This document shows positions 20,965-44,972 of a stretch of 54,340 nucleotides of DNA, piece by piece (position 1 is the stretch's first letter; every line of letters starts with the position of its first letter). Under the pieces are notes generated by a model, which worked only from the letters and a program-made list of their open reading frames with translations, searched no databases and was not told the DNA's origin. Made by a program: the position numbers and the translations under genes. The stretch is from Candidatus Hermodarchaeota archaeon (GTDB taxonomy: Archaea > Asgardarchaeota > Hermodarchaeia > Hermodarchaeales > Hermodarchaeaceae), in the NCBI GenBank assembly GCA_016839365.1, contig JAEOUH010000022.1:1-54340 (forward strand). Direction: 5' to 3'.

Positions 20965-22275
20965 TCACGGGTGAATACGACTAGGCGTGCGCGGGAATAG
21001 ACAGGCTTCACGAATATGCTTTAACTTCAACAACCACACCAAAAATCGCTCCAACCCCATCCCAAAGCCAGAATGAGGTGGAAGCCCAAATTTCCGAAGC
21101 TCAAGATACCAATCATATGCAGATGGATCAAGTTTCTCATCTTTAATCCGCTTAAGCAACAAATCCAAATCATGGATTCGTTGGCCACCACTGGTCAACT
21201 CTCCAAACCCCTCGGGTGCAATCAAATCACTGCTGAGCGTTATCTCAGGGCGGTCAGGATCTGGCATATGATAAAATGAGCGCGCCGATGTGGGATACCC
21301 CGTGATGAAGAAAGGCGCCTTGAACTGTTTTGACACAGCACGTTCTGCCTCTGTGCCTAAATCTTCTCCCCAAGGCACCTTGAATCCTTGTTTTTCCGCT
21401 ATGGTAATCGCTTCATCGTAGGAAACCCGCTTGAAGGGTAATTTGGGTATCCGCACTTTCACCTTCAGAATATCCAGTTGAGGTTGAAAGTGCTCTGTAA
21501 TGTAAGACACTAAAGCGTGAACTAGGCGTTCTTCGACGCCCATAATGTCCTCATGGGTACCAAAGAGAATCTCAGCTTCCAAATGCCAATATTCGGTTAA
21601 ATGCCGTCGGGTTCGATGTTTTTCCGCGCGAAAACTCGGAGAAAGCAGATATACCTTCTCCAATCCACAAATCGCCGCCTCTTCATACAATTGTGCGCTC
21701 TGGCTCAGATAAGCCGTTGTACCAAAATACTTGAACGGAAACAGTGTTGCACCACCTTCAACACTGGCACCCACCATCACTGGTGGAAAGATTTCAGTAA
21801 ACCCTTCGCCATCAAAGAACTGATGCGCCGCACGACTCATCCCCGCCTTAATCTGCATAATCGACGTTTGGCTAGGACTCCGCAAGTACAGATGCCGCTT
21901 ATCATACAGGAAAGCTTCACCTGCATCCTTTTCCAGTGGCCACTCCGGGTCAGCAAGATTCACCACCGTAAACTCCGTCACCTTTAACTCAATACCAGTA
22001 GGCGCGCGCTTATCCACCGCAATCGTCCCTGTCACAACAATTGACGACTCCAGCGTCACTGTCTGCATCGACTCAAAGGCATCCGGCGCCTGTTCACGGT
22101 GCCCTGCAGCCTGGATGACACCTGTTGAATCACGGACAATCACAAAGATCACACCGCCATGCTCACGTTTCCGATGCACCCACCCAGTCAGCGTCACAGA
22201 TGCCCCCTCCATGGAGGTATCCAGCTCCGACACATAATGAGTTTTTCCAAACGTTTTCAGCACTTTATCCGTCAC
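20965..22275 (-). CDS. asnS: Asparaginyl-tRNA synthetase
   Basis: GWVHRKR, YLSQSAQLYEE, FRAEKHRTRRHLTEYWHLE, PHSGFGMGLER; likely GTG start at 22275. Confidence 0.88.
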   Translation of the reverse strand: MTDKVLKTFGKTHYVSELDTSMEGASVTLTGWVHRKREHGGVIFVIVRDSTGVIQAAGHREQAPDAFESMQTVTLESSIVVTGTIAVDKRAPTGIELKVTEFTVVNLADPEWPLEKDAGEAFLYDKRHLYLRSPSQTSIMQIKAGMSRAAHQFFDGEGFTEIFPPVMVGASVEGGATLFPFKYFGTTAYLSQSAQLYEEAAICGLEKVYLLSPSFRAEKHRTRRHLTEYWHLEAEILFGTHEDIMGVEERLVHALVSYITEHFQPQLDILKVKVRIPKLPFKRVSYDEAITIAEKQGFKVPWGEDLGTEAERAVSKQFKAPFFITGYPTSARSFYHMPDPDRPEITLSSDLIAPEGFGELTSGGQRIHDLDLLLKRIKDEKLDPSAYDWYLELRKFGLPPHSGFGMGLERFLVWLLKLKHIREACLFPRTPSRIHP

Positions 22276-22326
22276 ACTAAGTCCCACCAAACGCAGCAAA
22301 CAACAACAGGAGAATAACGGTACTGG

Positions 22327-22872
22327 TTAAGAGGATTTTGCTACACGTCGACGAATATACCCAAGCATCTCTTTCGCAATATACTCAAACGCCGGCGTCA
22401 CGTTCACATCATCCTTCGCGCTGGTTTCAAAATACGCCTTGAACCCATTCGCCTTTGCAAACTGGATCACTTCCTTCTGATCCACCGCCCGATGCAAATC
22501 CGCCTTCATCCCAACCAATACGATCGGGATATTCTCCGTATTATCGCGCACCAAGCTCAACCACTCATCTAACTTTAGAAAAGTGCTAAACCGATTCAAA
22601 TCAAAACACAACATCGCCCCACGCGCCCCAAAACAAAACTTCGGTAACAAAAACCGAAACCGCTTCTCCCCACCAAAATCCCAGATTTGGGCCTTGATTG
22701 GTGTGGGTCCGTGGCCATCGTTAATAACAATACGCTTGGCTGCGAAGGCAGTTCCGACAGTTAAAATGGAATCATGGTAGACGCCTTCGACGTAACGTCG
22801 TATCATGGTTGTTTTGCCGACGCCGCCTTCGCCGGCGACGACGAGTTTGAGCATGATGCCTTCGTCTTCCAC
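22327..22872 (-). CDS. Rab-like small GTPase
   Basis: G1 GEGGVGKT, G3 WDFGG, G4 MKAD, G5 ETSAK; RabF-like VGTAF, KAQIW, RFRFL, LCFDL. Confidence 0.9.
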   Translation of the reverse strand: MEDEGIMLKLVVAGEGGVGKTTMIRRYVEGVYHDSILTVGTAFAAKRIVINDGHGPTPIKAQIWDFGGEKRFRFLLPKFCFGARGAMLCFDLNRFSTFLKLDEWLSLVRDNTENIPIVLVGMKADLHRAVDQKEVIQFAKANGFKAYFETSAKDDVNVTPAFEYIAKEMLGYIRRRVAKSS

Positions 22873-22942
22873 GGTGTGCGCTTCCGCTTGGTCCGTTTGT
22901 TCACGTGTCAGTTAACGGTGAGGATAAAAAAACTGTTCGGTG

Positions 22943-22964
22943 GTAACCCGTTTGGGTCGGTTTT
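22943..22964. promoter_or_regulatory. Shared motif GTAACCCGTT-N4-TCGGTTTT (copy 1)
   Basis: Near-identical to 42927..42949; lies in the divergent Rab/ferredoxin intergenic region. Confidence 0.4.
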
Positions 22965-23028
22965 ATCGAGGTTGATTCACAAGTTTTTTGGCTGTGTTTC
23001 TGCCTGTTTTAAGCTAGTTGGTGGTGTG

Positions 23029-23565
23029 ATGGTGTTGCATATAGCTGTGGTGCCAGCACGGTGTACAGGGTGCCGAGTGTGTGAGCTGGTATGCAGTGAC
23101 GCCCATGAGGGCCGATTTCAGCCGAGTAAGGCGCGAATTCAAGTAGTGTCCTTTGATGAAACGGTGCAGGATGTGCCAATTGTGTGTCAGCAGTGTGCAG
23201 AGGCGCCGTGTATGGAGGCGTGTCCCCAGGATGCGATTTCACGGCACCCGGAAACCACGGCAGTGGTGGTGGACCGTGAGCTGTGCATACAGTGTGGGGC
23301 TTGTGTCCGTGCCTGTGTGATTGGTGGCGAGGCGATTAATCCGGAAAACAAGTTGGCGATTCGCCTAGATGATGAGGCGGAGATGCCTTTGAAGTGTGAC
23401 CTATGTGATGGTGAGCCGCAGTGTATCATGTATTGCCCAACGGAGGCGTTGGTGTTGACGGAGACATCATTTGAGGGGGAATTTTCTGTTGATGCGTTGA
23501 TGAAGGCGCTGGATTATTTCTTGAAACAAGCAGAGTTGCCATTGCCAAAACAGGAGGGTGACTAG
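23029..23565 (+). CDS. 4Fe-4S multi-cluster ferredoxin-like protein (AOR-associated)
   Basis: CTGCRVCELVC, CQQCAEAPCMEACP, CIQCGACVRAC, CDLC..CIMYCP; ATG at 23029 after GGTG. Confidence 0.9.
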   Translation: MVLHIAVVPARCTGCRVCELVCSDAHEGRFQPSKARIQVVSFDETVQDVPIVCQQCAEAPCMEACPQDAISRHPETTAVVVDRELCIQCGACVRACVIGGEAINPENKLAIRLDDEAEMPLKCDLCDGEPQCIMYCPTEALVLTETSFEGEFSVDALMKALDYFLKQAELPLPKQEGD

Positions 23566-25459
23566 CGTGTATCAAGGGTATAGTGGTAAGATTCTTCGTA
23601 TTAACTTGAATGATCAGGATGTCACATTGGAGGCAACATCACCGGAGATTGCGCGTCGTTTCATTGGGGGAACAGGTTATGCCAGCTACCTGTTGTACCA
23701 TGAGCTAGCAAAGGGAGTTGAGCCCCTGGGGCCGGAAAACAAGCTGATCTTTTGCACAGGGCCAGTGACGGGAACACCCTGGCCAACTGCGGGTCGGATG
23801 GCAGTTGTGAGTAAATCGCCTTTGACCGGAATTTGGGCTGAAAGTCACGTGGGTGGGCATCTAGGCCCGGAGATTAAATTCGCCGGATATGATTTCATTA
23901 TTATTGAGGGGCAGGCACGGGAGCCGACGGTCCTTTCGATTGTTGACGACAATACCGAGTTTCACTCAGGGTCACCGTATTGGGGGCAGAAAACTCTGAA
24001 AGCCTCCAAAAGGATTCGGCGGGATTTTAAGCAACCCCACGGTCATGTGGCGCTGATCGGACCGGCAGGCGAAAATGGAGTTCGGTTCTCCTCGATTATG
24101 ATTGATGGAGCCCGCGCCGCCGGTAGAACGGGATTAGGCGCAGTTATGGGGAACAAAAAGCTGAAGGGTATACTGGTGCGGGGAACTGGTAATGTGACAG
24201 TTGCAGACCCCCAACAATTCCAAGCCCTATGGCGTGAAGGGCATGACCGAGTGCAAACCAATCCCCAAGCCCTGGAAATGCGTAAGTATGGCACAGCAAT
24301 CCTTGTGGCTACAAAACAGAGTATCGGTGAACTGCCGACCTACAACCACCGCGAGGGAGTGTACGAAGGCTGGGATCGAATTTCCGCGGAAACCTTTCAC
24401 GATCACCACTACCACACAACCCGGGCCTGTGGGACTTGTCGCCTAGCCTGCAAGAAGGCCTTCAAGGTGAAGCATGGCCCGCATAAGGGGCTCATCACTG
24501 AAGGACCTGAGTATGAGGGGATCATGGCGATGGGTAGTAATGTGGGAATCGATGATATTCCGACCATTCTTGTTACCCAGCATCTTTGCAATGAATATGG
24601 AATGGATGTCATTAGTGCAGGAGCGACTGCGGCATTTCTGATGGAATTAGCAGAACATGGGTTACTAACGGAAGATGAACTGGATATCCGATGGGGCAAC
24701 ACGAATGCGTTGATTGAGCTGATGCATCAGATTGCCCAGCGGAAAGGATTGGGTAATTTGGCAGCTGAAGGGAGTCATCGGATTGCGAAACAAAAGGGAG
24801 AATCAGCTGAACCCTATGACATGACAGTCAAGGGTATGGAGATTTCTGGTCAAGATGGCCGGGCCCACCGATCCATGGCATTAGGGCATGCGGTGGCAGC
24901 CCGGGGTGCCGATCATCTCCGCAATCTCGTCACAATGGACCAGCTAGCCTACAAGGATGTGGCAGCGGAACGATTTGGTGCCGATAAGCTCCCTGAAATC
25001 TGCGATCCGTATGTTGAAACCTATAAGGCACTGGCAACGGTTGTGACTGAAAAAGTGTATACCATTCGGGATAGTTTGATTGTGTGCTGGTATACGTGTT
25101 CGTGGCCGCCTATCTTCTGGGTCGAGGATTTCGCACCACTCCTCACTTCGGTGACAGGTGAATCTGCCTTTGATAGCGTTGATGAGTTAATGCACATCGG
25201 TACTCGGTTGGTCACCATGAAACGGGCATTCAACGCGCGCGAAGGGATTCGGCGAAAAGATGACCGGCTGCCTCGTCGATTCACCCATGAACCTTTCCCC
25301 AAAGGTCCTAGTAAAGGTCAGACGGTTAATCTTGAGCCAATGCTCGACGAGTATTATCATCTCTACGGTTGGGACGTCAAAACCGGAATACCAACAGAAG
25401 AAACCCTGCGAAAATTGGGGCTTGAAGAGCTTATTAAGGACCTTCATGTTAAGAGTTAG
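23558..25459 (+). CDS. aor: Tungsten-dependent aldehyde:ferredoxin oxidoreductase family protein
   Basis: KSPLTG, IGPAGEN, AAGRTGLGAVMGNKKLK, CGTCRLAC, GPEYE, DDRLPRRF. Confidence 0.92.
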   Translation: MTSVYQGYSGKILRINLNDQDVTLEATSPEIARRFIGGTGYASYLLYHELAKGVEPLGPENKLIFCTGPVTGTPWPTAGRMAVVSKSPLTGIWAESHVGGHLGPEIKFAGYDFIIIEGQAREPTVLSIVDDNTEFHSGSPYWGQKTLKASKRIRRDFKQPHGHVALIGPAGENGVRFSSIMIDGARAAGRTGLGAVMGNKKLKGILVRGTGNVTVADPQQFQALWREGHDRVQTNPQALEMRKYGTAILVATKQSIGELPTYNHREGVYEGWDRISAETFHDHHYHTTRACGTCRLACKKAFKVKHGPHKGLITEGPEYEGIMAMGSNVGIDDIPTILVTQHLCNEYGMDVISAGATAAFLMELAEHGLLTEDELDIRWGNTNALIELMHQIAQRKGLGNLAAEGSHRIAKQKGESAEPYDMTVKGMEISGQDGRAHRSMALGHAVAARGADHLRNLVTMDQLAYKDVAAERFGADKLPEICDPYVETYKALATVVTEKVYTIRDSLIVCWYTCSWPPIFWVEDFAPLLTSVTGESAFDSVDELMHIGTRLVTMKRAFNAREGIRRKDDRLPRRFTHEPFPKGPSKGQTVNLEPMLDEYYHLYGWDVKTGIPTEETLRKLGLEELIKDLHVKS

Positions 25460-31838: not shown

Positions 31839-31957
31839 CACTCGACATTTCATGACGCGTCATCCTTATAGCCGGTGAGGAGAATCAATTAACGTCGTAG
31901 AAAATCAGTGAATTGACGTCCTACGTGAGAGACCGAATCAGGATTGAAGTGAAAAAA

Positions 31958-34900
31958 ATGACCCCAAATGATGAGAACCCCCCAGCTTCATCAAAGAAGG
32001 AAGAAAGTGCTGCTCAATGTGCACCCCCTATTGAGATTTCGTCTGAGTTGTTAACGGCTTTGCAAGTGCGGTTTAAGCTCACGGAGTCTCAAAGTCGTGC
32101 TTACACCGTATTGTTGGTATTAGGTCAGTTGACTGCAGATGAAGTCAGCAACTATTCGGGAATGCCGATGACCAAGATAAAAAGCACCATTAAAACCCTT
32201 GAAGATAAGCAACTAATCAAGCCTCTACCCGGTGTTGTCACCCGCTACCGAGCTTTTGCACCCTATAAGGAGTTTGCTGATGAAGTTCAATCGTTCACTA
32301 AAGACACTGAAAAATCTTGGAAAGAATTACAAAAACTCCAAACACAAACATTGAGTGAAATCCATGACGAGCTGCAAACGATGACGAGGCAAACTCGTAG
32401 CTCCTTAGAGAACCTGAACGAACGGCAAGGAATTGCATTAAACGAAGCGGCAATGGCTACTAACATTGTTTTGAGCAATGTGGCTGAAAACCTGCAGAAA
32501 TCCTTGGATAGCCTTACAACGACGAGTGTGAATGAGATCTCTGAGCACACAACATCAATCCAACAGGCTCTCAGCACCCTCGTTGATAAGGGATTTTCTC
32601 AATTAGATGCCGATCAACAACTCGCCCTAGATGATGCATCAAAGGCAATGAGTGCCCACCAAGAGGATGCGAACCAATGGGTTAGCTCCATATTGGAACA
32701 AGTCTTAGATCGAACTTCTGGAAGTGCCCAGCAATTTACAACCCGTTTAGATGATGCAAAGGTCCTTTTCGACCGTAATATAGATTCCAGCATCAAAAGC
32801 GTTGTAACCGAAGTCACCTCACAGAAAGAAGAGACCACTGATATCATCGAGGATACTGCGAATACTGTCACAGATGAAATCACAACCCACACCCACGAGA
32901 CGCAACAGGTGTTAGCCGCGTTACAAAAGGAAACCAAGCAAGTTTTAACAAAACACAATCAGGATCTCTCATCTCAAATACGAAATATATGGGCACAGCA
33001 GACACAGGCCTTGGATAACGCAATTATGGACCTCGAAAAAACTGTTCAAAAGGAAAATCAGCAACTAATTCAGGAAAGGGATATAGCTGCTGCAACAATG
33101 AATACAAAAATAAAATCAGGGCGTGAAGACTCAGTACAGATTATAGAAACGCTGTTTCAAGATTTAAAGAAAACTCAACAGCATATTAGTTCCGAGTTAC
33201 GGCGGCTCCATAAAGAAGCTGAAACAACCATTGCACAATGGCCTCCCTCATCACTGAATTTTTCACAATTCTCTAAAATCAAAACCACAACATCGAAACT
33301 AGTTGAGCAAGTAAAAACTGAACAGGTTCAGGTGTTGGATAGTACAAGCCAGAATTTAACCGTTGAAATGCGAGATACTTACTTAACAAGTCTTCTTGAA
33401 GTCCAGAATCTGCTACAGGCACTTATTGAAGAAAGTAAGACGCAGAAAACCAAGCTTACGGAAAATTTCAAATCGATTGCTGATCAAGTTGGACGGCGAC
33501 TCAAACGCCGATTAGGTATAATTCAGAAAACAGCCGAAACATTTCTGTCAGATTTTCAGTCCAATGCGGATTCATTGGAAGCCCAACATCAGGCCTTTGG
33601 CAAACAAATGCAAAAACTTCTCAAAACAGAGGCCAACGCCACTCTAAAAGCACTTGAAGAAACTGAAGCCCAGATTAAAGATTACAGTGGCACCCGATTA
33701 CTCCAAGCACAAGATGCCATAAAACGGTCAGTTAAAGAGAATCTGGCAAAAGCCACGAAAGAACAAGAGGGCACATTAAAACAAGTAAGAACTTTCCAGG
33801 CAGCAATGAAAAACGCGATTAAGGAAGCAACTAAAGAATTACACCAAGAATTTGCCAAGCTTGAAGGTATCGTTCGGCAATATTCTGATGGAATTGAAAG
33901 CACCGCTGATAAGTTCCGCTCCGAACAAATTCTAAAAATCGAAACGGCAATTGAAAAGTACCAGCCTGAACTCACAACACTACAATCGACCCGTGATAGT
34001 GCAATCACTCGCGCTATGAATTCATTGGCAACCCAACTTACCAAGCGAAGCCAAAACACTTTGAATGACTTCAACACTCTCATGTTAGAAATCATTCCAG
34101 TTTATGGTCTCTCTGCACTGGATTCATATCAAACTACTTTTCAAAAAAATGCAATCACTCTAGAAACTAAAGCTCTATCAGCAACAGAGTCGGCAATACC
34201 GGTGCAACTCACTGCATCAGAGCTTGAAACCATTGATACAGGGATTACAAAGGCTCTGAGCAAACAGATAGATGATGTTTCGGCGAGTTTCGAAGACTTC
34301 CTTGCAAGCCAGCAAACATTGCAGGATTCACAGTCAGAAACTGCATTAAGTTTAGCGCAGGATGAGTTAATCGAAGTATTTGGGCAGCAAATCTCTGAAC
34401 ACAACGAGGCCCTCGCGAAATCGTTCAGAAGTAAACTGAAACCTGTTTTAAACCAATGCAAAACCAAGATTTCGAACCAGATAAACCGTGAAGAACAGAT
34501 CATCAAACTAATCCAGACAGCACAAAAAAAGATCAAGACAGCGTTAACCCCATTTGTAGCCAGGCGATCAAAAGCTATTCGTGATAAACTCGATGAAGAA
34601 CTCGAATCAACCTTTCAAACTCTTAGATCTCAACTAGAAAAACAGACCAACCGTGAAGCTAAAGTCGTAGAAATTATCGACTCAACCGCAACCAATCTAG
34701 AAAAGTTATCAGAAGCCCAATTCATGAAAGGGTCCGAGAAAAACCTAAACGAACAAGTATCGAATCTCCTAGCAATTTTCACTGAATACCAATCGGCCCT
34801 GAAACGTCAACACATGACCAATACAAAAAGTATCACTACTGAATTTCAAGATTTGTTTAATCAAATGATAGAGGCAAGTTATGTAGGAAGCTTGAAACCG

Positions 34901-37336
34901 CAAATAAATAGCCTCCTGCAAAAAACTTGCACAGAAGTGTTAGAACTTTATCGAACAAAAATTGCAGCAGAACAAACAACCTTGATTGAAAAGGCAGAGG
35001 TAGCCTATCAAACTGCATTAGATAACCAACTCCGCACTCAACTGCAACCCAGAATTAATGAGTATTCAACCTCTGAAAACCCTGCAATCAGCGCTTTAAT
35101 TGATGAAACAAAAATCGTTCTTGCAGAGACAATTAAAAAAGGTGATGCAAACAATCGAACTCTCATTGAAAAGTACTGGTTGCCTCTGACAAAAATCATT
35201 GAGGAATATTCCTCTGCCGTAGTGGGTAACCTCACAGCTCTAAACACGGCAACCGGTTCTGCAGTCGACCAGACAACCTTGAATGTCAACACGACCCTGA
35301 CGAATTTCGAAGATGACTCGAACAAGTTATTGACAGCTACTGTTCAAACTCTTGATCGAGAAAAAAGTGGAATCAACGAGCAAATCATGCAAAGCTTCAC
35401 CGAATTGCAAGAGGACTGCATCGCACAGCTTCAAGAAGCTCAAACCCTCCTTGAAACATTGAATAGTGATATTGTGGCACGAAAGGCTGCAACAACTGAT
35501 AAAATCGAAAAGATGGCGGGGGAAATTGATGCCACGACAACCTCAAATTATGCAACTACTCGGGAAATCGCTAATTCCTTTGTAGAGAAGGTCCAAAATG
35601 AATTAGCAACCCAGGGAGAAAGGGTTGAGAACCTCAAGAAAACTATCCAAGATCTAATCCATAAACAGGGAGTGGCTCTAAACGAGAGTGTGGATCGAAT
35701 CTTAACACAACTGGTTGAGTTCTCAGAAACGCAGATACCAAAAATGCAAGGCATCACAGAAGAGATAGGGCAAAATTGTGTGAATCGCATCGAAGAGCAA
35801 AGAACTATCACGGACCAAAACTTAGATGAATTCGCGCTTGCTCTTTCGAAAGAATTAGACAAGTACACTTCCACATTACAACAAGAGTTGGAACAGCTAC
35901 AAACCATTTCATCAAAATTAGTGGAGAAAATCGGAAAAACCACTGACACTATTGATACGGAAATTACCAAGGAAACCGACACCAGCAAAGTGAACCTGCT
36001 CAACGCGATCAACACTCAACAGCAGACATTGAATCAGGATATTACCGCAACGTTTGAATCACTAGCTGAGAAAACACAACAAATTCAGGTTCAACTGCTG
36101 GATAACCTAAATCGTGTTCGAGAGGAAGGAAAAGAAGCGCTTGACCAAGACCAAAATGAAATCACTACTGCTTTAGATACCACTCTCAACTCAACAGTGA
36201 ACAAAAGTGAACATTCCATTCAAGCACAACTCGAAACACAGAAGACAAAAACTCAATCCCTAATCACACAACTAGGCGAAACTCTTTCAACCCTTAGAAA
36301 TAGAGTAACCACAACCTCAGATAGTCTTCAGGAATCAGTAACATCTGCGTTGATGAACACTCAAACCGAACTCACAAAGATTCACTCAAATTCGAAGACA
36401 TTAATAGAAGAAGGAAATCAGGCCCTTAAAACTGAAATAGGACAGGAAGCGGAAAAGGCTCTGCAAAGCCAAACCAAATCGATAGGCTTAACTGAGTCTC
36501 GATTAAAGCGGGCAATCCAGGATAGTATCCGTCGAACGAAGGAAAGCCTACAGAGTTTGAAAGGTACAACATCAACAGATCTTCAGCAAAAGAACAAATC
36601 CTTCATTGCATCCGTCACTCAAGTTCTGGAGAACGCTAAAGACGGACTAGTGACTCAAACTCAACAAACAGGGAGGCGTATTAGTCGTACCCTGAGCAAA
36701 GAACGCCAAACTTTGAAAACTGATTATCAGACTCTGGCAAAAGAAATTAATACACGAGCTAAGACTGCCGAGACAACAGCTGTGAACTCGTTGCAACTCT
36801 TCTCGGCACAAACTGAGCCAACTCTAGACCGCTTGCGAACACAGGCAGTTCAAACGGAAGACATTCTTATCGGTCTATGGGATACGCTTACAAAACTAGA
36901 ACCCCCTGAAGCTGAGCGAACTTGGCGTATTGTTACCTGCGAAGGGATTCAAAACCATTTGTTAGACATGTTTCGTAGAGTTGATGAAACGATTACCTTG
37001 GTATATCCCTCGTTTGATGAGGTGCCAGTAACGGAACTTAGTAAAATTCAACCAAAAAGCCGTGTACATATAATTACCACGTTTGATGGAGAAAAACAGT
37101 TGGCTAGTGCCCAGAAGCTCTTACAACATGGGAATATCCGAATCTGGGATAACCCGAATATGGAGTTCTACGGTGGATCCAGGGATGGGGAAGAAGTTCT
37201 CATCGCCCCTACCTATGGGAATCAGGGGGAAATCGTTGCAGTTGTTAGCGACCAAGCAAGTTACATTGCATTATTCAATCAAACGTTAGGACCACGATGG
37301 GTTTCCGCATCAGAGGAAATTCGCCTTCGAAGTTGA
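31958..37336 (+). CDS. Giant TrmB-family protein: wHTH + about 1,550-aa helical/coiled-coil insert + TrmB PLD-like domain
   Basis: LTESQSRAYTVLL..TADEVSNYSG..LEDKQLI..YRAFAP; Q/E/T/L-rich Pro-poor middle; C-terminal RDGEEVLIAP. Confidence 0.8.
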   Translation: MTPNDENPPASSKKEESAAQCAPPIEISSELLTALQVRFKLTESQSRAYTVLLVLGQLTADEVSNYSGMPMTKIKSTIKTLEDKQLIKPLPGVVTRYRAFAPYKEFADEVQSFTKDTEKSWKELQKLQTQTLSEIHDELQTMTRQTRSSLENLNERQGIALNEAAMATNIVLSNVAENLQKSLDSLTTTSVNEISEHTTSIQQALSTLVDKGFSQLDADQQLALDDASKAMSAHQEDANQWVSSILEQVLDRTSGSAQQFTTRLDDAKVLFDRNIDSSIKSVVTEVTSQKEETTDIIEDTANTVTDEITTHTHETQQVLAALQKETKQVLTKHNQDLSSQIRNIWAQQTQALDNAIMDLEKTVQKENQQLIQERDIAAATMNTKIKSGREDSVQIIETLFQDLKKTQQHISSELRRLHKEAETTIAQWPPSSLNFSQFSKIKTTTSKLVEQVKTEQVQVLDSTSQNLTVEMRDTYLTSLLEVQNLLQALIEESKTQKTKLTENFKSIADQVGRRLKRRLGIIQKTAETFLSDFQSNADSLEAQHQAFGKQMQKLLKTEANATLKALEETEAQIKDYSGTRLLQAQDAIKRSVKENLAKATKEQEGTLKQVRTFQAAMKNAIKEATKELHQEFAKLEGIVRQYSDGIESTADKFRSEQILKIETAIEKYQPELTTLQSTRDSAITRAMNSLATQLTKRSQNTLNDFNTLMLEIIPVYGLSALDSYQTTFQKNAITLETKALSATESAIPVQLTASELETIDTGITKALSKQIDDVSASFEDFLASQQTLQDSQSETALSLAQDELIEVFGQQISEHNEALAKSFRSKLKPVLNQCKTKISNQINREEQIIKLIQTAQKKIKTALTPFVARRSKAIRDKLDEELESTFQTLRSQLEKQTNREAKVVEIIDSTATNLEKLSEAQFMKGSEKNLNEQVSNLLAIFTEYQSALKRQHMTNTKSITTEFQDLFNQMIEASYVGSLKPQINSLLQKTCTEVLELYRTKIAAEQTTLIEKAEVAYQTALDNQLRTQLQPRINEYSTSENPAISALIDETKIVLAETIKKGDANNRTLIEKYWLPLTKIIEEYSSAVVGNLTALNTATGSAVDQTTLNVNTTLTNFEDDSNKLLTATVQTLDREKSGINEQIMQSFTELQEDCIAQLQEAQTLLETLNSDIVARKAATTDKIEKMAGEIDATTTSNYATTREIANSFVEKVQNELATQGERVENLKKTIQDLIHKQGVALNESVDRILTQLVEFSETQIPKMQGITEEIGQNCVNRIEEQRTITDQNLDEFALALSKELDKYTSTLQQELEQLQTISSKLVEKIGKTTDTIDTEITKETDTSKVNLLNAINTQQQTLNQDITATFESLAEKTQQIQVQLLDNLNRVREEGKEALDQDQNEITTALDTTLNSTVNKSEHSIQAQLETQKTKTQSLITQLGETLSTLRNRVTTTSDSLQESVTSALMNTQTELTKIHSNSKTLIEEGNQALKTEIGQEAEKALQSQTKSIGLTESRLKRAIQDSIRRTKESLQSLKGTTSTDLQQKNKSFIASVTQVLENAKDGLVTQTQQTGRRISRTLSKERQTLKTDYQTLAKEINTRAKTAETTAVNSLQLFSAQTEPTLDRLRTQAVQTEDILIGLWDTLTKLEPPEAERTWRIVTCEGIQNHLLDMFRRVDETITLVYPSFDEVPVTELSKIQPKSRVHIITTFDGEKQLASAQKLLQHGNIRIWDNPNMEFYGGSRDGEEVLIAPTYGNQGEIVAVVSDQASYIALFNQTLGPRWVSASEEIRLRS

Positions 37337-41384: not shown

Positions 41385-42875
41385 CTACTTCTTTTCTTTC
41401 TCTTCTTTTTTCTTCTGCTTCTCTTCTTCCTTCCGCTGCTTCTCTTCCTCTTTCAGCCGCTTCTCCTCAGCCTTCCGCGCCTCTTCCTCTTCCTTCTGCT
41501 TCTGCTTCTCCTCAGCCTTCAAACGCTTCTCCTCAGCCTTCAAACGCTTCTCCTCAGCCTTCAAACGCTTCTCCTCAGCCTTCCGCGCCTTCTCTTCTTC
41601 CTTCTGGATCCGCTTCGCTTCTTTCTCATCAACTTCAAGTAACTCAGTGGTTTCTGGAGCTTCTGTCTCAGCAAGTTCAGGAGGTGGAGTCATTTCCGTT
41701 TCCATCTCGGGAAGTTCTTCTTCACCCTCTTCCTTCTTCCGTTTCTTGCGTTCCTTCATCTTCTCACGCATACGCATGTACATCTCACTGAGAAGTTCAA
41801 GATGCCGTTTCGCGATATCTGGATGAATGTCCTTGGCCTCTAAGCGTTCCTGGATACGGAGTACCAGAAACTCAGGGAAAAAGGACTCAAAGTGCACATC
41901 AGCAATTAACATAATCAGGGGGTCATCGTTGGCTGACACCTCAACAGTATCCTCACCCATCTTCGTAATCACTTGCACCTGCTCTAATCGACGCAATACA
42001 TTATCTAGCGATGCTTCCTTCTCAACGACACCAACCAGCTCGGATTTATGTGCGATTTTCCGTCGTAGGGTCTTGGTTACATCATAGATATCAGGATCAA
42101 GCAGCAGCTGGCCAATCATAATCGTATCTTCTTCAGTCCACTGATACTCCTCGAAAAAGCCCTTCACTCGTGTCTCATATTCGGCATACTGTTGTTTGTT
42201 CAAACCGCCACTCTTGGCTAATTTTAGTGATTGTTCAGGTGGAAACCGTGCCCCGAGTAAGTCATTGACTAAAAAGACACAGTTATCAGACACAGCGTTA
42301 ATCCAATCCTCTTCTACTAGCCCACTACGCAATAAGGACAATGTTACCAGACCTAAGTCTGGATAGTGCTTCCCGGTCTGCAGCTCAAGCCATTCTCGTA
42401 ACTCCTCGGCTGAAATCCCACCCCTAGCCAACTTGTGCATGAGTAATCGGGTCTCCTGATCCACGAAGACTTTGGCAAGCCGCTGCTCCACCGACAGCTC
42501 CACCATCCGCTTCAGCTTCTCAAATACTTCACCCAAATACTCCACAAACTCGGGCTCACCAATATTCTCCACAATCTCACTTGACGCAAGCGTCAACCCC
42601 TCCTCATACGCACGTGGCTCCTCATCCAGCTCCATAAACAACATAATACAGAACTGATCACGGCCTCGAAGAATCCCGGTGTAAAAACTACTCACCGCCA
42701 GATTCGTTCCTTCAAGCGTCATCGTGAGAAACCCAGCCTCGGGTTTACCCATCGCATGGGCAGTGAATACTCGCAACATATCATCTTCAGAAACTTCAAG
42801 ATTGCGAGGGTACACCCCAACGATACGAAGTCCGACCTTGTCGTCCCACCTGCATATGCTTAGACCTTTTGGCAT
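41385..42875 (-). CDS. uDENN/NPRL2-like longin protein with winged-helix repeats and K/E-rich tail
   Basis: N-terminal CRWDDKVGLRIVGVYP resembles the uDENN/NPRL2 beta-hairpin; wHTH-like GISAEELREWL..LLRSGLV; ATG at 42875. Confidence 0.6.
   Translation of the reverse strand: MPKGLSICRWDDKVGLRIVGVYPRNLEVSEDDMLRVFTAHAMGKPEAGFLTMTLEGTNLAVSSFYTGILRGRDQFCIMLFMELDEEPRAYEEGLTLASSEIVENIGEPEFVEYLGEVFEKLKRMVELSVEQRLAKVFVDQETRLLMHKLARGGISAEELREWLELQTGKHYPDLGLVTLSLLRSGLVEEDWINAVSDNCVFLVNDLLGARFPPEQSLKLAKSGGLNKQQYAEYETRVKGFFEEYQWTEEDTIMIGQLLLDPDIYDVTKTLRRKIAHKSELVGVVEKEASLDNVLRRLEQVQVITKMGEDTVEVSANDDPLIMLIADVHFESFFPEFLVLRIQERLEAKDIHPDIAKRHLELLSEMYMRMREKMKERKKRKKEEGEEELPEMETEMTPPPELAETEAPETTELLEVDEKEAKRIQKEEEKARKAEEKRLKAEEKRLKAEEKRLKAEEKQKQKEEEEARKAEEKRLKEEEKQRKEEEKQKKKEEKEKK
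41504..41583. repeat. 21-bp tandem repeat, about 3.8 copies, encoding KAEEKRL on the minus strand
   Basis: GCTTCTCCTCAGCCTTCAAAC three times plus a 17-nt partial copy. Confidence 0.95.
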
Positions 42876-42926
42876 ACTTTCAAACTCCCGTTTATTCAAA
42901 TAGGTTCTGTAGCTATGGGTTTTAAA

Positions 42927-42949
42927 GTGACCCGTTAACACTCGGTTTT
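42927..42949. promoter_or_regulatory. Shared motif GTGACCCGTT-N5-TCGGTTTT (copy 2)
   Basis: Near-identical to 22943..22964; directly precedes a TTTAAAA box on the minus strand. Confidence 0.4.
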
Positions 42950-43060
42950 GACTATCTGGATTCCCGTATTTAACTTGTTTGTCGGTTCCGGAATTCCGAG
43001 GTTTCAAGTTGTAGCTTTCTGCAATTTTTCGCAAGAATAATGAGGATTTTTGAGTTTTCG

Positions 43061-43930
43061 CTAGTCTGTGGTTGCTTCTGCCACAGCACCGAGAATGATT
43101 TTGTAAAGGATTTCACGGTAGCGGGGATCGATGGCGACTAATCCGTAGGCTTGCACTCCGAGGATGCGTTGAACGAGTTTAGGGGCGAGGGCACCGGGAA
43201 GGTCTTGTTTGTTGGCGATGGACCAGACTATGGAAGATGGAGAGTTTTTGCGGACGATTTCGAGGATGTCGCGGGTTTCGAGGACGTTTTTGAGGGTGGA
43301 GTCGGTGACGAGTAAGACGGCGTCGGCGTTGCGGAGGTAGTAGTTCCAGAGGCTGCGGAAGCGGTCTTGGCCAGCAAAATCCCAGACGGCGAGTTCGTAG
43401 GGACCGAAGCGGACGCCCTGGAGTGTTTCGATGTCAACGGCGATGGTGGGGTAGTAGTCGCCGGGGATGCTGTCGGCGGTGAGAAGTTTGAGCATGGTGG
43501 ATTTGCCGACCCCGCCTTGGCCGAGGAGGCAGATTTTGAGCATGGTGACAATGACATTGTCAAGTTCGGTCGCAAAGCCTTTGAAGGCTTCGCCAAGGGG
43601 GACGGGTTTTTGGATATAGGCGTCAATTTCGTGGTTGAATTTGGTAATAAGGAGTTCCTGGGTTTTTTTGAGTGTGCCTTTGATTTTTTCATCTTCGTCA
43701 CTCATGTCGACGGCAAAAACAAGGAGGAGATGGGTGCCGGCTTCTTGGTAGATGAACTTGATGTTTTTGACATGGATAGGGAGATCGACTTTGCTGCCAA
43801 GTTCGGATTCGAAGTGTTTGTAGGTGGCAAGGAATTCCTGTCGTTCTTCGGAGGTGATTTCCACTGACCAGTATTGGCGGTGGAAGGCAAGGCGGCCGTC
43901 GCGGGTCATGATGAAGATGTTGTGAATCAT
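43061..43930 (-). CDS. Longin domain - Arf-like small GTPase fusion
   Basis: MIHNIFIMTRDGRL longin start; GQGGVGKST, PTI, WDFAGQDRFRSLWNYY, NKQDL; ATG at 43930. Confidence 0.88.
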   Translation of the reverse strand: MIHNIFIMTRDGRLAFHRQYWSVEITSEERQEFLATYKHFESELGSKVDLPIHVKNIKFIYQEAGTHLLLVFAVDMSDEDEKIKGTLKKTQELLITKFNHEIDAYIQKPVPLGEAFKGFATELDNVIVTMLKICLLGQGGVGKSTMLKLLTADSIPGDYYPTIAVDIETLQGVRFGPYELAVWDFAGQDRFRSLWNYYLRNADAVLLVTDSTLKNVLETRDILEIVRKNSPSSIVWSIANKQDLPGALAPKLVQRILGVQAYGLVAIDPRYREILYKIILGAVAEATTD

Positions 43931-43952
43931 CGAATGGTGTTTCTCCTTTTGG

Positions 43953-44972
43953 TTATTCGGCACGGGTGATGGCTTTTTCTTGAGGTGTAGCGCGTCGCCG
44001 TCGTTGTTTGTATTGGGGGAGCTTTTTTTCATCCGAACTCAGGAGGTTGCGGAGCTCCCGGTAGTTGCGACGCAGTGATGTACGTGAACAACCCACAAGT
44101 TCGATTATATCGTTTTCGGGTATAGAATCCCCGGTTTGTTTTGCACTGTAGTAGGCAATGGAAGCGGCGATGATTGGTCGTGGATGCCCTTGGAAGAGAC
44201 CTTCTTGCCCGACATATTCAACGATGTTGTGGGCGTATTCTTCAGTTTCTGGTTTCACCTCCAAGATTGCGAACAGGCGATCGAGGATTGCATGAACTGG
44301 CTCAGTCCAGACACCTGGTTTTGCTTCTTTAAACTTCTGTCGCTCTTGATCGTAGTCTTCGAGGATGCGTTGGATTCCAGCACGGACCAACTGGCGAGCG
44401 TTTGCGAGTTGGTTTTGGCGTTGTCGTCGAATATAACGGGGACATTGGGGGTATCCGGGCATGTCATAGATTGTTAAATAGCATTGTTTCTTAACCACGC
44501 GGCAGAAGGAGGTCATTTTATCGGTCTTAATTGGTCGTTCATAGACGTAGGGACACAGCGATTGGTCGCGTGACCCACCACGACGCTCAATTTTTCTGTA
44601 GCTATCCGAAAGAATTTGCCGATACCGCCGTTTTCTATTTGAAGGGTTCCCGCTTGTTTTTGTTATTCGCTGCAATGTCCTGAGGAGAATTTCCTCATAG
44701 GCGGAGCCCTCTTCTTCAGCCGTAAGAAGCACGAAGAGACAGATATCGTCTTCAACACCATCTAGCAAGAGACGTGTGCAAGCAACTGCTGCACGTTCCT
44801 TAACCTCTTTTGTGGGAAAAACTTGAAAGGTGGTTCCCAAGTCCTGTGGAGCACTGCCATAATACATCATGGACATGTCGCTGACCTGAAAGTCCAAGGA
44901 ACCAGGATACTTGGAGAGTATCTTCAGTCCTTCTTTGGTGTCCCACTGACTAACAACCAGGCCCCGAGGAAT
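43953..44972 (-). CDS. uDENN/longin-like + Cys4 + TFB (TFIIB) C-terminal cyclin-fold fusion; probable ATT start
   Basis: Frame is open upstream of the track start: IPRGLVVSQWDTKEGLKILSKYP; Cys cluster CPY..C..C..CPRY; C-terminal GLFQGHPRPIIAASIAYY..VGCSRTSLRRNYREL. Confidence 0.7.
   Translation of the reverse strand: MPRGLVVSQWDTKEGLKILSKYPGSLDFQVSDMSMMYYGSAPQDLGTTFQVFPTKEVKERAAVACTRLLLDGVEDDICLFVLLTAEEEGSAYEEILLRTLQRITKTSGNPSNRKRRYRQILSDSYRKIERRGGSRDQSLCPYVYERPIKTDKMTSFCRVVKKQCYLTIYDMPGYPQCPRYIRRQRQNQLANARQLVRAGIQRILEDYDQERQKFKEAKPGVWTEPVHAILDRLFAILEVKPETEEYAHNIVEYVGQEGLFQGHPRPIIAASIAYYSAKQTGDSIPENDIIELVGCSRTSLRRNYRELRNLLSSDEKKLPQYKQRRRRATPQEKAITRAE

Follow-up and report, generated by a model that had tools for sequence, protein, structure and literature searches.

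What could make the silent-site composition of a gene reverse its strand asymmetry within a few codons, in the middle of the coding sequence, is the question raised by a Rab-like small GTPase gene of Candidatus Hermodarchaeota archaeon, an Asgard archaeon (Hermodarchaeia) from sediment (assembly GCA_016839365.1, contig JAEOUH010000022.1, positions 1 to 54,340; this whole stretch of 54,340 nucleotides is called the window here). An earlier note, made from the letters of this DNA, had placed such a flip at about 22,680 and attributed it to a fixed point source of strand-specific mutation, such as a local site of initiation or DNA unwinding. A recount returned exactly the reported numbers, both for the plus strand (11 G against 42 C at 22561-22680; 43 G against 17 C at 22981-23100) and for the Rab codons, and the cumulative skew reaches its minimum at 22,683 (keto) and 22,682 (GC), matching the proposed junction. 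Before Trp64, 47 of 60 degenerate Rab codons end in C or A; after it, 90 of 113 end in G or T (p=1e-13), including 34 of the first 38. The skew does not vanish at four-fold sites, as the earlier note had allowed that it might (29/34 C/A before against 37/46 G/T after, p=4e-9), and the switch is also present in both two-fold codon classes. When third positions were corrected for codon-box expectation and the 2.2-Mb assembly (84% complete, genes called by our own script) was scanned, the Rab flip ranked first, with a matched-filter Z of 13.5, while within-contig shuffles reached at most 4.5. The flip is neither chance nor artefact, and the Rab site carries a real, conserved and short-range mirror mark of mutation.

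A misassembly or a recombinant chimera, the other weaknesses foreseen in the earlier note, can be given practically no weight, since contigs from runs X2 and X5, which may be source samples, and from run X14, not so marked, cross the junction with 0-2 differences, and the 5′ and 3′ halves of the Rab gene give identical closest relatives. Depth at the junction is flat (in assembled contigs only). Orthologs were found in 17 of 18 genomes of the family, and 15 of these 17 flip likewise at p<0.01; the best single change-point ranges by lineage from codon 27 to codon 71. Among more distant Asgard Rab loci, a strong flip was seen in 1 of 85. The edge is sharp in this genome, with the maximum-likelihood change-point at codons 63-66; in the average of 24 orthologs, the switch consists of two half-steps flanking a near-neutral core (Table 1), with a residual of about -0.1 in the core (AT content 0.51), -0.44 to -0.67 before it and +0.6 after it.

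On the left arm the plus-strand residual is -0.72 beside the centre and near 0 past ~1.8 kb, and the four-fold sites of the asnS-like gene fade from G56/C9 in its first 200 codons to G27/C19 in its last 200, whereas the right arm keeps +0.3 to +0.6 out to 1 kb. Taken together, the residual at the Rab site falls from 0.62 close to the centre to 0.01 at 3-4.5 kb, and the bias has a decay constant of 0.9 kb.

The earlier reading missed that the Rab flip is one among dozens. At a threshold of Z of at least 5.5, the assembly contains 45 upward and 11 downward flips, with none in the shuffles, and 33 of the 45 lie within genes. Flip strength is conserved between species (Spearman 0.48, 301 orthologs), small GTPase genes are over-represented at flips (6/29 vs 3.4%, p=4e-4), and paralog pairs share their flip centres, 5 codons apart in HdrA and 3 in porB. 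Flips were also seen in other Asgard lineages (G019, G024 and G029); none was found in 135 kb of G021. Pooled profiles, whose innermost bins are inflated because the flips were chosen on the signal later profiled, show a weak tail of 0.01-0.03 out to 12-16 kb. On the strand running outward (5′-3′) from the centre, G is up and C and A are down, with T up at two-fold sites.

This shift is equal in sense genes, in antisense genes and in intergenic DNA. If a cryptic promoter inside the gene fired in both the sense and the antisense direction, or gave rise to R-loops, the exposed non-template strands would have the polarity observed, and intergenic promoter regions do coincide with, or lie close to, the second flip of the window and 12 of the 45 sites; nevertheless, such a cause is very improbable, since genome-wide the four-fold sites of coding strands are poor in G and rich in C, which is the opposite bias, flips are no closer to gene starts than random positions (p=0.39), the effect ignores gene orientation, and half-flips at intein junctions would be left unexplained. 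A scan for sigma-70 promoters, which are irrelevant for an archaeon, stayed at chance level. Selection on codon use or on DNA or RNA fold-back is still harder to credit. The C/A-rich and G/T-rich arms are complementary in composition and shuffled versions of the 5′ Rab mRNA fold slightly less well than the real one (z=-1.6), but no long inverted repeat centred on the Rab site and no Rfam match were found, the bias continues from one gene into the next, on either strand and through intergenic DNA, and four-fold divergence near flips is higher, not lower, than elsewhere (0.35-0.39 vs 0.28, p=2e-8). This raised silent divergence points to mutation rather than constraint and largely refutes selection. 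In addition, a gene present at the second flip in only two relatives has taken on the bias, which indicates that the effect is positional; together, the bias on either strand, the raised divergence and the gained gene support the fixed, cis-acting point source proposed earlier.

The nature of that source is suggested by the inteins. All five inteins resident in this genome (two in MCM, and one each in RNR, PolD DP2 and PolB) show half-flips at their splice junctions, with pooled residuals of -0.38 on the left flank, -0.05 inside and +0.50 on the right flank, whereas about 9% of elements of intein size would be expected near a flip by chance. The MCM, Hel308 and V-ATPase A inteins of the closed genome G029 carry the same mark, and in G019 a 34-nt bulge-helix-bulge (BHB) intron lies at the centre of a skew flip in an actin gene. 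This insertion (G019:C1 ~535,630-535,670, L136), found in an actin-family gene of a closed 1.4-Mb Odin-like genome, has the bulge-helix-bulge fold, and its excision restores the conserved PPERMYSVWIGG frame, so that an archaeal-type intron resides in a eukaryote-signature gene. Both porB paralogs are intein-free, yet flip within ~6 codons of NxAYxN-T, an intein site in other microbes. At 13 other intein sites, which stand empty in this genome, upstream bias averages about -0.07 in the empty alleles and about -0.2 in occupied alleles of those sites, and it reaches -0.3 to -0.9 at the common MCM-a and DP2 inteins; the mark follows occupancy more than target status.

That the same mark flanks inteins points to break-and-repair synthesis, and we lean towards reading the Rab mark as the scar of recurrent site-specific breakage, or nicking, followed by recombination-primed synthesis, a reading that we hold to be somewhat more probable than its negation. 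Under such a scheme, a fixed site would be broken or nicked recurrently and repaired by homologous recombination, each broken 3′ end invading an intact copy and priming synthesis across the break and outward for ~1 kb on the far side; priming of this kind in a D-loop has been described for archaea (PMC5333045), and the 0.9-kb decay is comparable with the reach of repair footprints at break hotspots in humans, 1-2 kb (PMC7615360). The outward strand would be nascent as well as displaced, much as at an origin though along a short tract only, and may for that reason gain G over time (A>G, T>G and C>G), whereas a part copied on both strands, such as the interior of an intein or perhaps the ~95-bp core at the Rab site, would stay neutral. 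For the cutter, we infer that a homing-type endonuclease is the likeliest candidate, one that acts in trans or is the remnant of a lost element and whose target would lie in or close to the G3 box of small GTPase genes. The genome offers as candidates the endonuclease domains of five inteins, a single free-standing LAGLIDADG gene and a weak match to HNH. The free-standing gene (G000:C56:140-2400) lies beside the strongest downward skew step of the genome.

Several observations weigh against this scar of breakage and repair. The 13 empty intein sites of this genome show no flip, so that being a homing target is not enough. No insertion in the Rab gene was present among 17 family and 9 metagenome orthologs, no intein among 121 longer homologs in a search that found many in porB as a positive control (the sampling being incomplete), and no insertion in 400 Asgard genomes in a search confined to the G3 position and to lengths of 14-45 nt; nor was any element or nuclease for the Rab site found. 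Likewise, no BHB intron occurs at the Rab site in this genome, BHB motifs near flips are at expectation (1 seen vs 0.7), and no viral Rab-like genes were found. An intein needs Cys, Ser or Thr as the first residue of its C-extein, and the Rab junction, Q-I-W-D-F-G, offers none, Ser and Thr occurring nearby only inside the neutral core, at codons 35-57; on the other hand, Q62 and W64-E69 are invariant in alignment A1, so that the junction does fall in a conserved catalytic motif, as intein targets do. The Rab site is not shown to be a homing site. No k-mer motif beyond compositional words is common to the 45 flip sites. A bipartite motif was also considered and rejected; its 2 copies in the genome both lie in the window, and it was matched in only two very close relatives. 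In the substitution spectrum, estimated from few pairs under the assumption of equilibrium, the rates of A>G, T>G and C>G come out roughly doubled, without any rise in C>T. The polarity of the flanks is the reverse of that left by damage to resected strands at human hotspots (PMC7615360); resection damage by itself thus fails to account for the sign, and outward synthesis would have to dominate. Finally, two GTPase paralogs bearing the WDF motif show no step. On the side of the scar stand the over-representation of small GTPase genes at flips, the shared centres of paralog pairs, the raised silent divergence and the longin-domain GTPase at the second flip of the window, a paralog 27% identical to the Rab protein, which in six relatives switches instead at its own WDF codon (~43,385). 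This switch, set beside the two paralogs lacking it, suggests a target near the G3 box that is sequence-defined but degenerate. Three further GTPase paralogs switch closer to switch I.

The interpretation in the earlier note is supported in part. The upward jump at the Rab site has the same polarity as origins bearing origin recognition boxes (ORBs) in G010 and G024, but the site is not a canonical origin, nor a member of the ORB-origin family. No ORB consensus with at most 1 mismatch occurs near the Rab site or any flip, no AT-rich unwinding element is present at the Rab site, the AT profile over 40 flips is flat, and genes are not co-oriented at flips. The canonical origin lies elsewhere in the genome (Table 1), five ORB copies cluster on its contig C76, and none of the three orc1/cdc6 genes (on C76, C47 and C15) adjoins the Rab site. 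Moreover, skew at the oriC of the relative G010 reaches ~16-20 kb (~0.1 being kept to 16 kb), whereas that at the Rab site is ~0 past 3 kb, and the amplitude at short range is 2-3 times that of oriC. Counting against the break-and-repair scar, the ORB origins of G024 and G029 likewise have a skew of only a few kb, the G024 flip being 3-5 kb wide, so that range alone does not exclude initiation. Flips may be secondary or dormant replication start sites lacking ORBs, where priming and initial unwinding would expose the outward strands over 1-2 kb, whether because firing aborts or because an error-prone polymerase acts at start-up; inteins would be marked too, since homing also primes synthesis. 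The shared polarity, the narrow G024 flip, the ~45 sites in 2.2 Mb with their weak pooled tail, the three Orc1/Cdc6 genes and the RadA-dependent, origin-independent replication known in Haloferax (PMC5333045) all accord with this possibility; the missing ORB, AT-rich element, shared motif and gene co-orientation, the short reach and high amplitude relative to oriC, and the location of most flips within genes, several of them at intein-type motifs, make it an unlikely, though by no means negligible, account. A Y-family polymerase was not found in this 84%-complete genome.

The host might also make the breaks, at recombination hotspots that it programmes and cuts, for instance, with a second TopoVI (Spo11-family) pair; the repair scar would be the same. 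Two complete pairs of Top6A and Top6B, both with the catalytic Tyr motif, are present in most genomes of the genus (two matches in 11 of 15; one G003 allele carries an intein), most strong flips have no known element, and the ~100-bp neutral centre with its slightly raised GC resembles meiotic hotspots. Nothing, however, ties either TopoVI to flip sites; G019 and G029 have one Top6A match each and still flip, G021 has Top6A and no flip in the 135 kb scanned, and the flank polarity is again the reverse of that at human SPO11 hotspots. Host-made breaks are accordingly quite doubtful as the cause.

Table 1. Coordinates of the features discussed (positions in the window unless a contig is given)
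Feature	Position	Strand	Basis or remark
Rab-like small GTPase gene, 181 aa, intact, without insertion, containing the switch	22327..22872	-	Pfam Ras, E=1e-35; Ras/Rab family
Trp64 codon in G3 box WDFGG, sharp edge of the switch	22681..22683	-	Skew minima; maximum-likelihood change-point
Near-neutral core of ~95 bp, Rab codons 31-62	22687..22782	.	Ortholog average, n=24
Left arm, with the 3′ part of Rab and an asnS-like class II tRNA synthetase gene; G/T-rich on the minus strand, fading outward	20965..22683	-	Pfam tRNA-synt_2
Right arm, with the 5′ part of Rab, the divergent promoter region, the 4Fe-4S protein gene and the beginning of the aldehyde ferredoxin oxidoreductase gene; G/T-rich on the plus strand, fading outward	22783..24500	+	Pfam Fer4, AFOR
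4Fe-4S protein gene	23029-23565	diverges from Rab	Four-fold sites G40/C9
Second flip, centre ~42,830-42,900	41385..44000	.	Z=11.5, next strongest after Rab
Longin-domain small GTPase gene, flanking the second flip	43061-43930		Gene
Conserved uncharacterised gene beside the second flip	41385-42875	-
Canonical oriC, upstream of orc1, with ORB copies of which two are inverted about an AT-rich spacer	G000:C76:570-2075 (L111)		Conserved in G007 and G010
TopoVI (Top6B+Top6A) pairs	G000:C17:43563-46678 and G000:C25:7735-10700		A subunits 30% identical

Around the Rab gene, the intergenic DNA towards the ferredoxin gene (22895-22990) contains non-coding blocks conserved in all orthologs of the genus, with a BRE/TATA-like element and an imperfect TTG-n5-CAA palindrome, and these blocks are probably promoter and regulator sites. 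At the second flip, the uncharacterised gene is located downstream of the longin-domain GTPase gene; its protein is 94-99% identical over the first 182 aa within the genus and has a Lys/Glu-rich repeat at its C-end, no Pfam match was obtained for it, and an atlas search returned only unnamed clusters. Elsewhere in the window, an 1807-aa open reading frame (31913-37336, +) has a strong A-rich skew, with an AT skew of up to 0.35. Beyond the window, two HdrA-like paralogs flip near an IGGHMA motif, and one flip lies between intron-bearing tRNA-Asp and tRNA-Tyr genes, the positions listed for these cases being G000:C38:10046, C27:4073 and C19:54124. In the closed genome G029 (C1), very strong flips at ~605,570 (L147) and ~1,066,806 (L420), with Z of 15 and 9, sit in an intein-free V-ATPase B gene, just before the Thr of MPVL-TMP, and at the 3′ end of rps12; both are candidates for homing targets not yet sampled.

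If the Rab mark is indeed a scar of breakage and repair, silent-site skew would map recurrent breakage and re-copying in uncultured Asgard archaea, and one would expect as yet unsampled mobile elements or nucleases whose targets are eukaryote-signature genes, among them those for Rab GTPases and actin. The 45 sites provide fixed coordinates, and in genomes of this kind a local jump of GC skew should not be taken as evidence for an origin. Were the sites instead programmed by the host, they would bear on the origin of meiotic hotspots or of multi-origin replication; it is conceivable, and in our judgement improbable, that Asgard archaea have dozens of stable, host-controlled sites of programmed breakage or of priming without ORBs, for example via the second TopoVI pair, which would be precursors, in prokaryotes, of meiotic hotspots or of the dispersed origins of eukaryotes, readable from sequence as mirror skew scars.

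Among known systems, four share traits with these sites. Intein and intron homing relies on LAGLIDADG endonucleases, with co-conversion of the flanks. The likeness lies in a fixed site in a conserved coding motif and in recombination-primed repair synthesis, and the resident inteins bear the identical mirror mark, whereas the Rab junction lacks an element, an endonuclease and any residue compatible with an intein; searches of the open-access literature yielded no lasting scar in composition around homing sites. Archaeal Orc1/Cdc6 origins, with their ORBs and DNA unwinding element (PMC5333045), show an upward jump of GC and keto skew of the same sign, from which the Rab site differs in its lack of ORB, AT-rich element and adjoining orc1, in its position in mid-gene and in the dozens of such sites per genome; compared with the oriC of G010, the flip is stronger near the centre and shorter in reach. 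In recombination-dependent replication, as in phage T4 and origin-less Haloferax (PMC5333045), 3′ invasion likewise primes outward, leading-strand-like synthesis and gives an origin-like polarity without an origin, while sites of the Rab type are fixed and extend ~1 kb. The SPO11/PRDM9 hotspots of human meiosis (Hinch et al. 2023, PMC7615360) have fixed centres, a symmetric core of ~100 bp, asymmetric flanks of 1-2 kb and a raised mutation rate; there, the damage falls on the resected inward strand, which gains C>N and A>N, whereas here, in an archaeon, the flank polarity is opposite and C>T is not raised. The mirror mark is a variant of known break-repair and origin skews, to which are newly added the ~95-bp neutral core in orthologs, a distant GTPase paralog that switches at the same WDF codon in several lineages, the genome-wide count of flips, the control by empty intein sites and the case of the intron.

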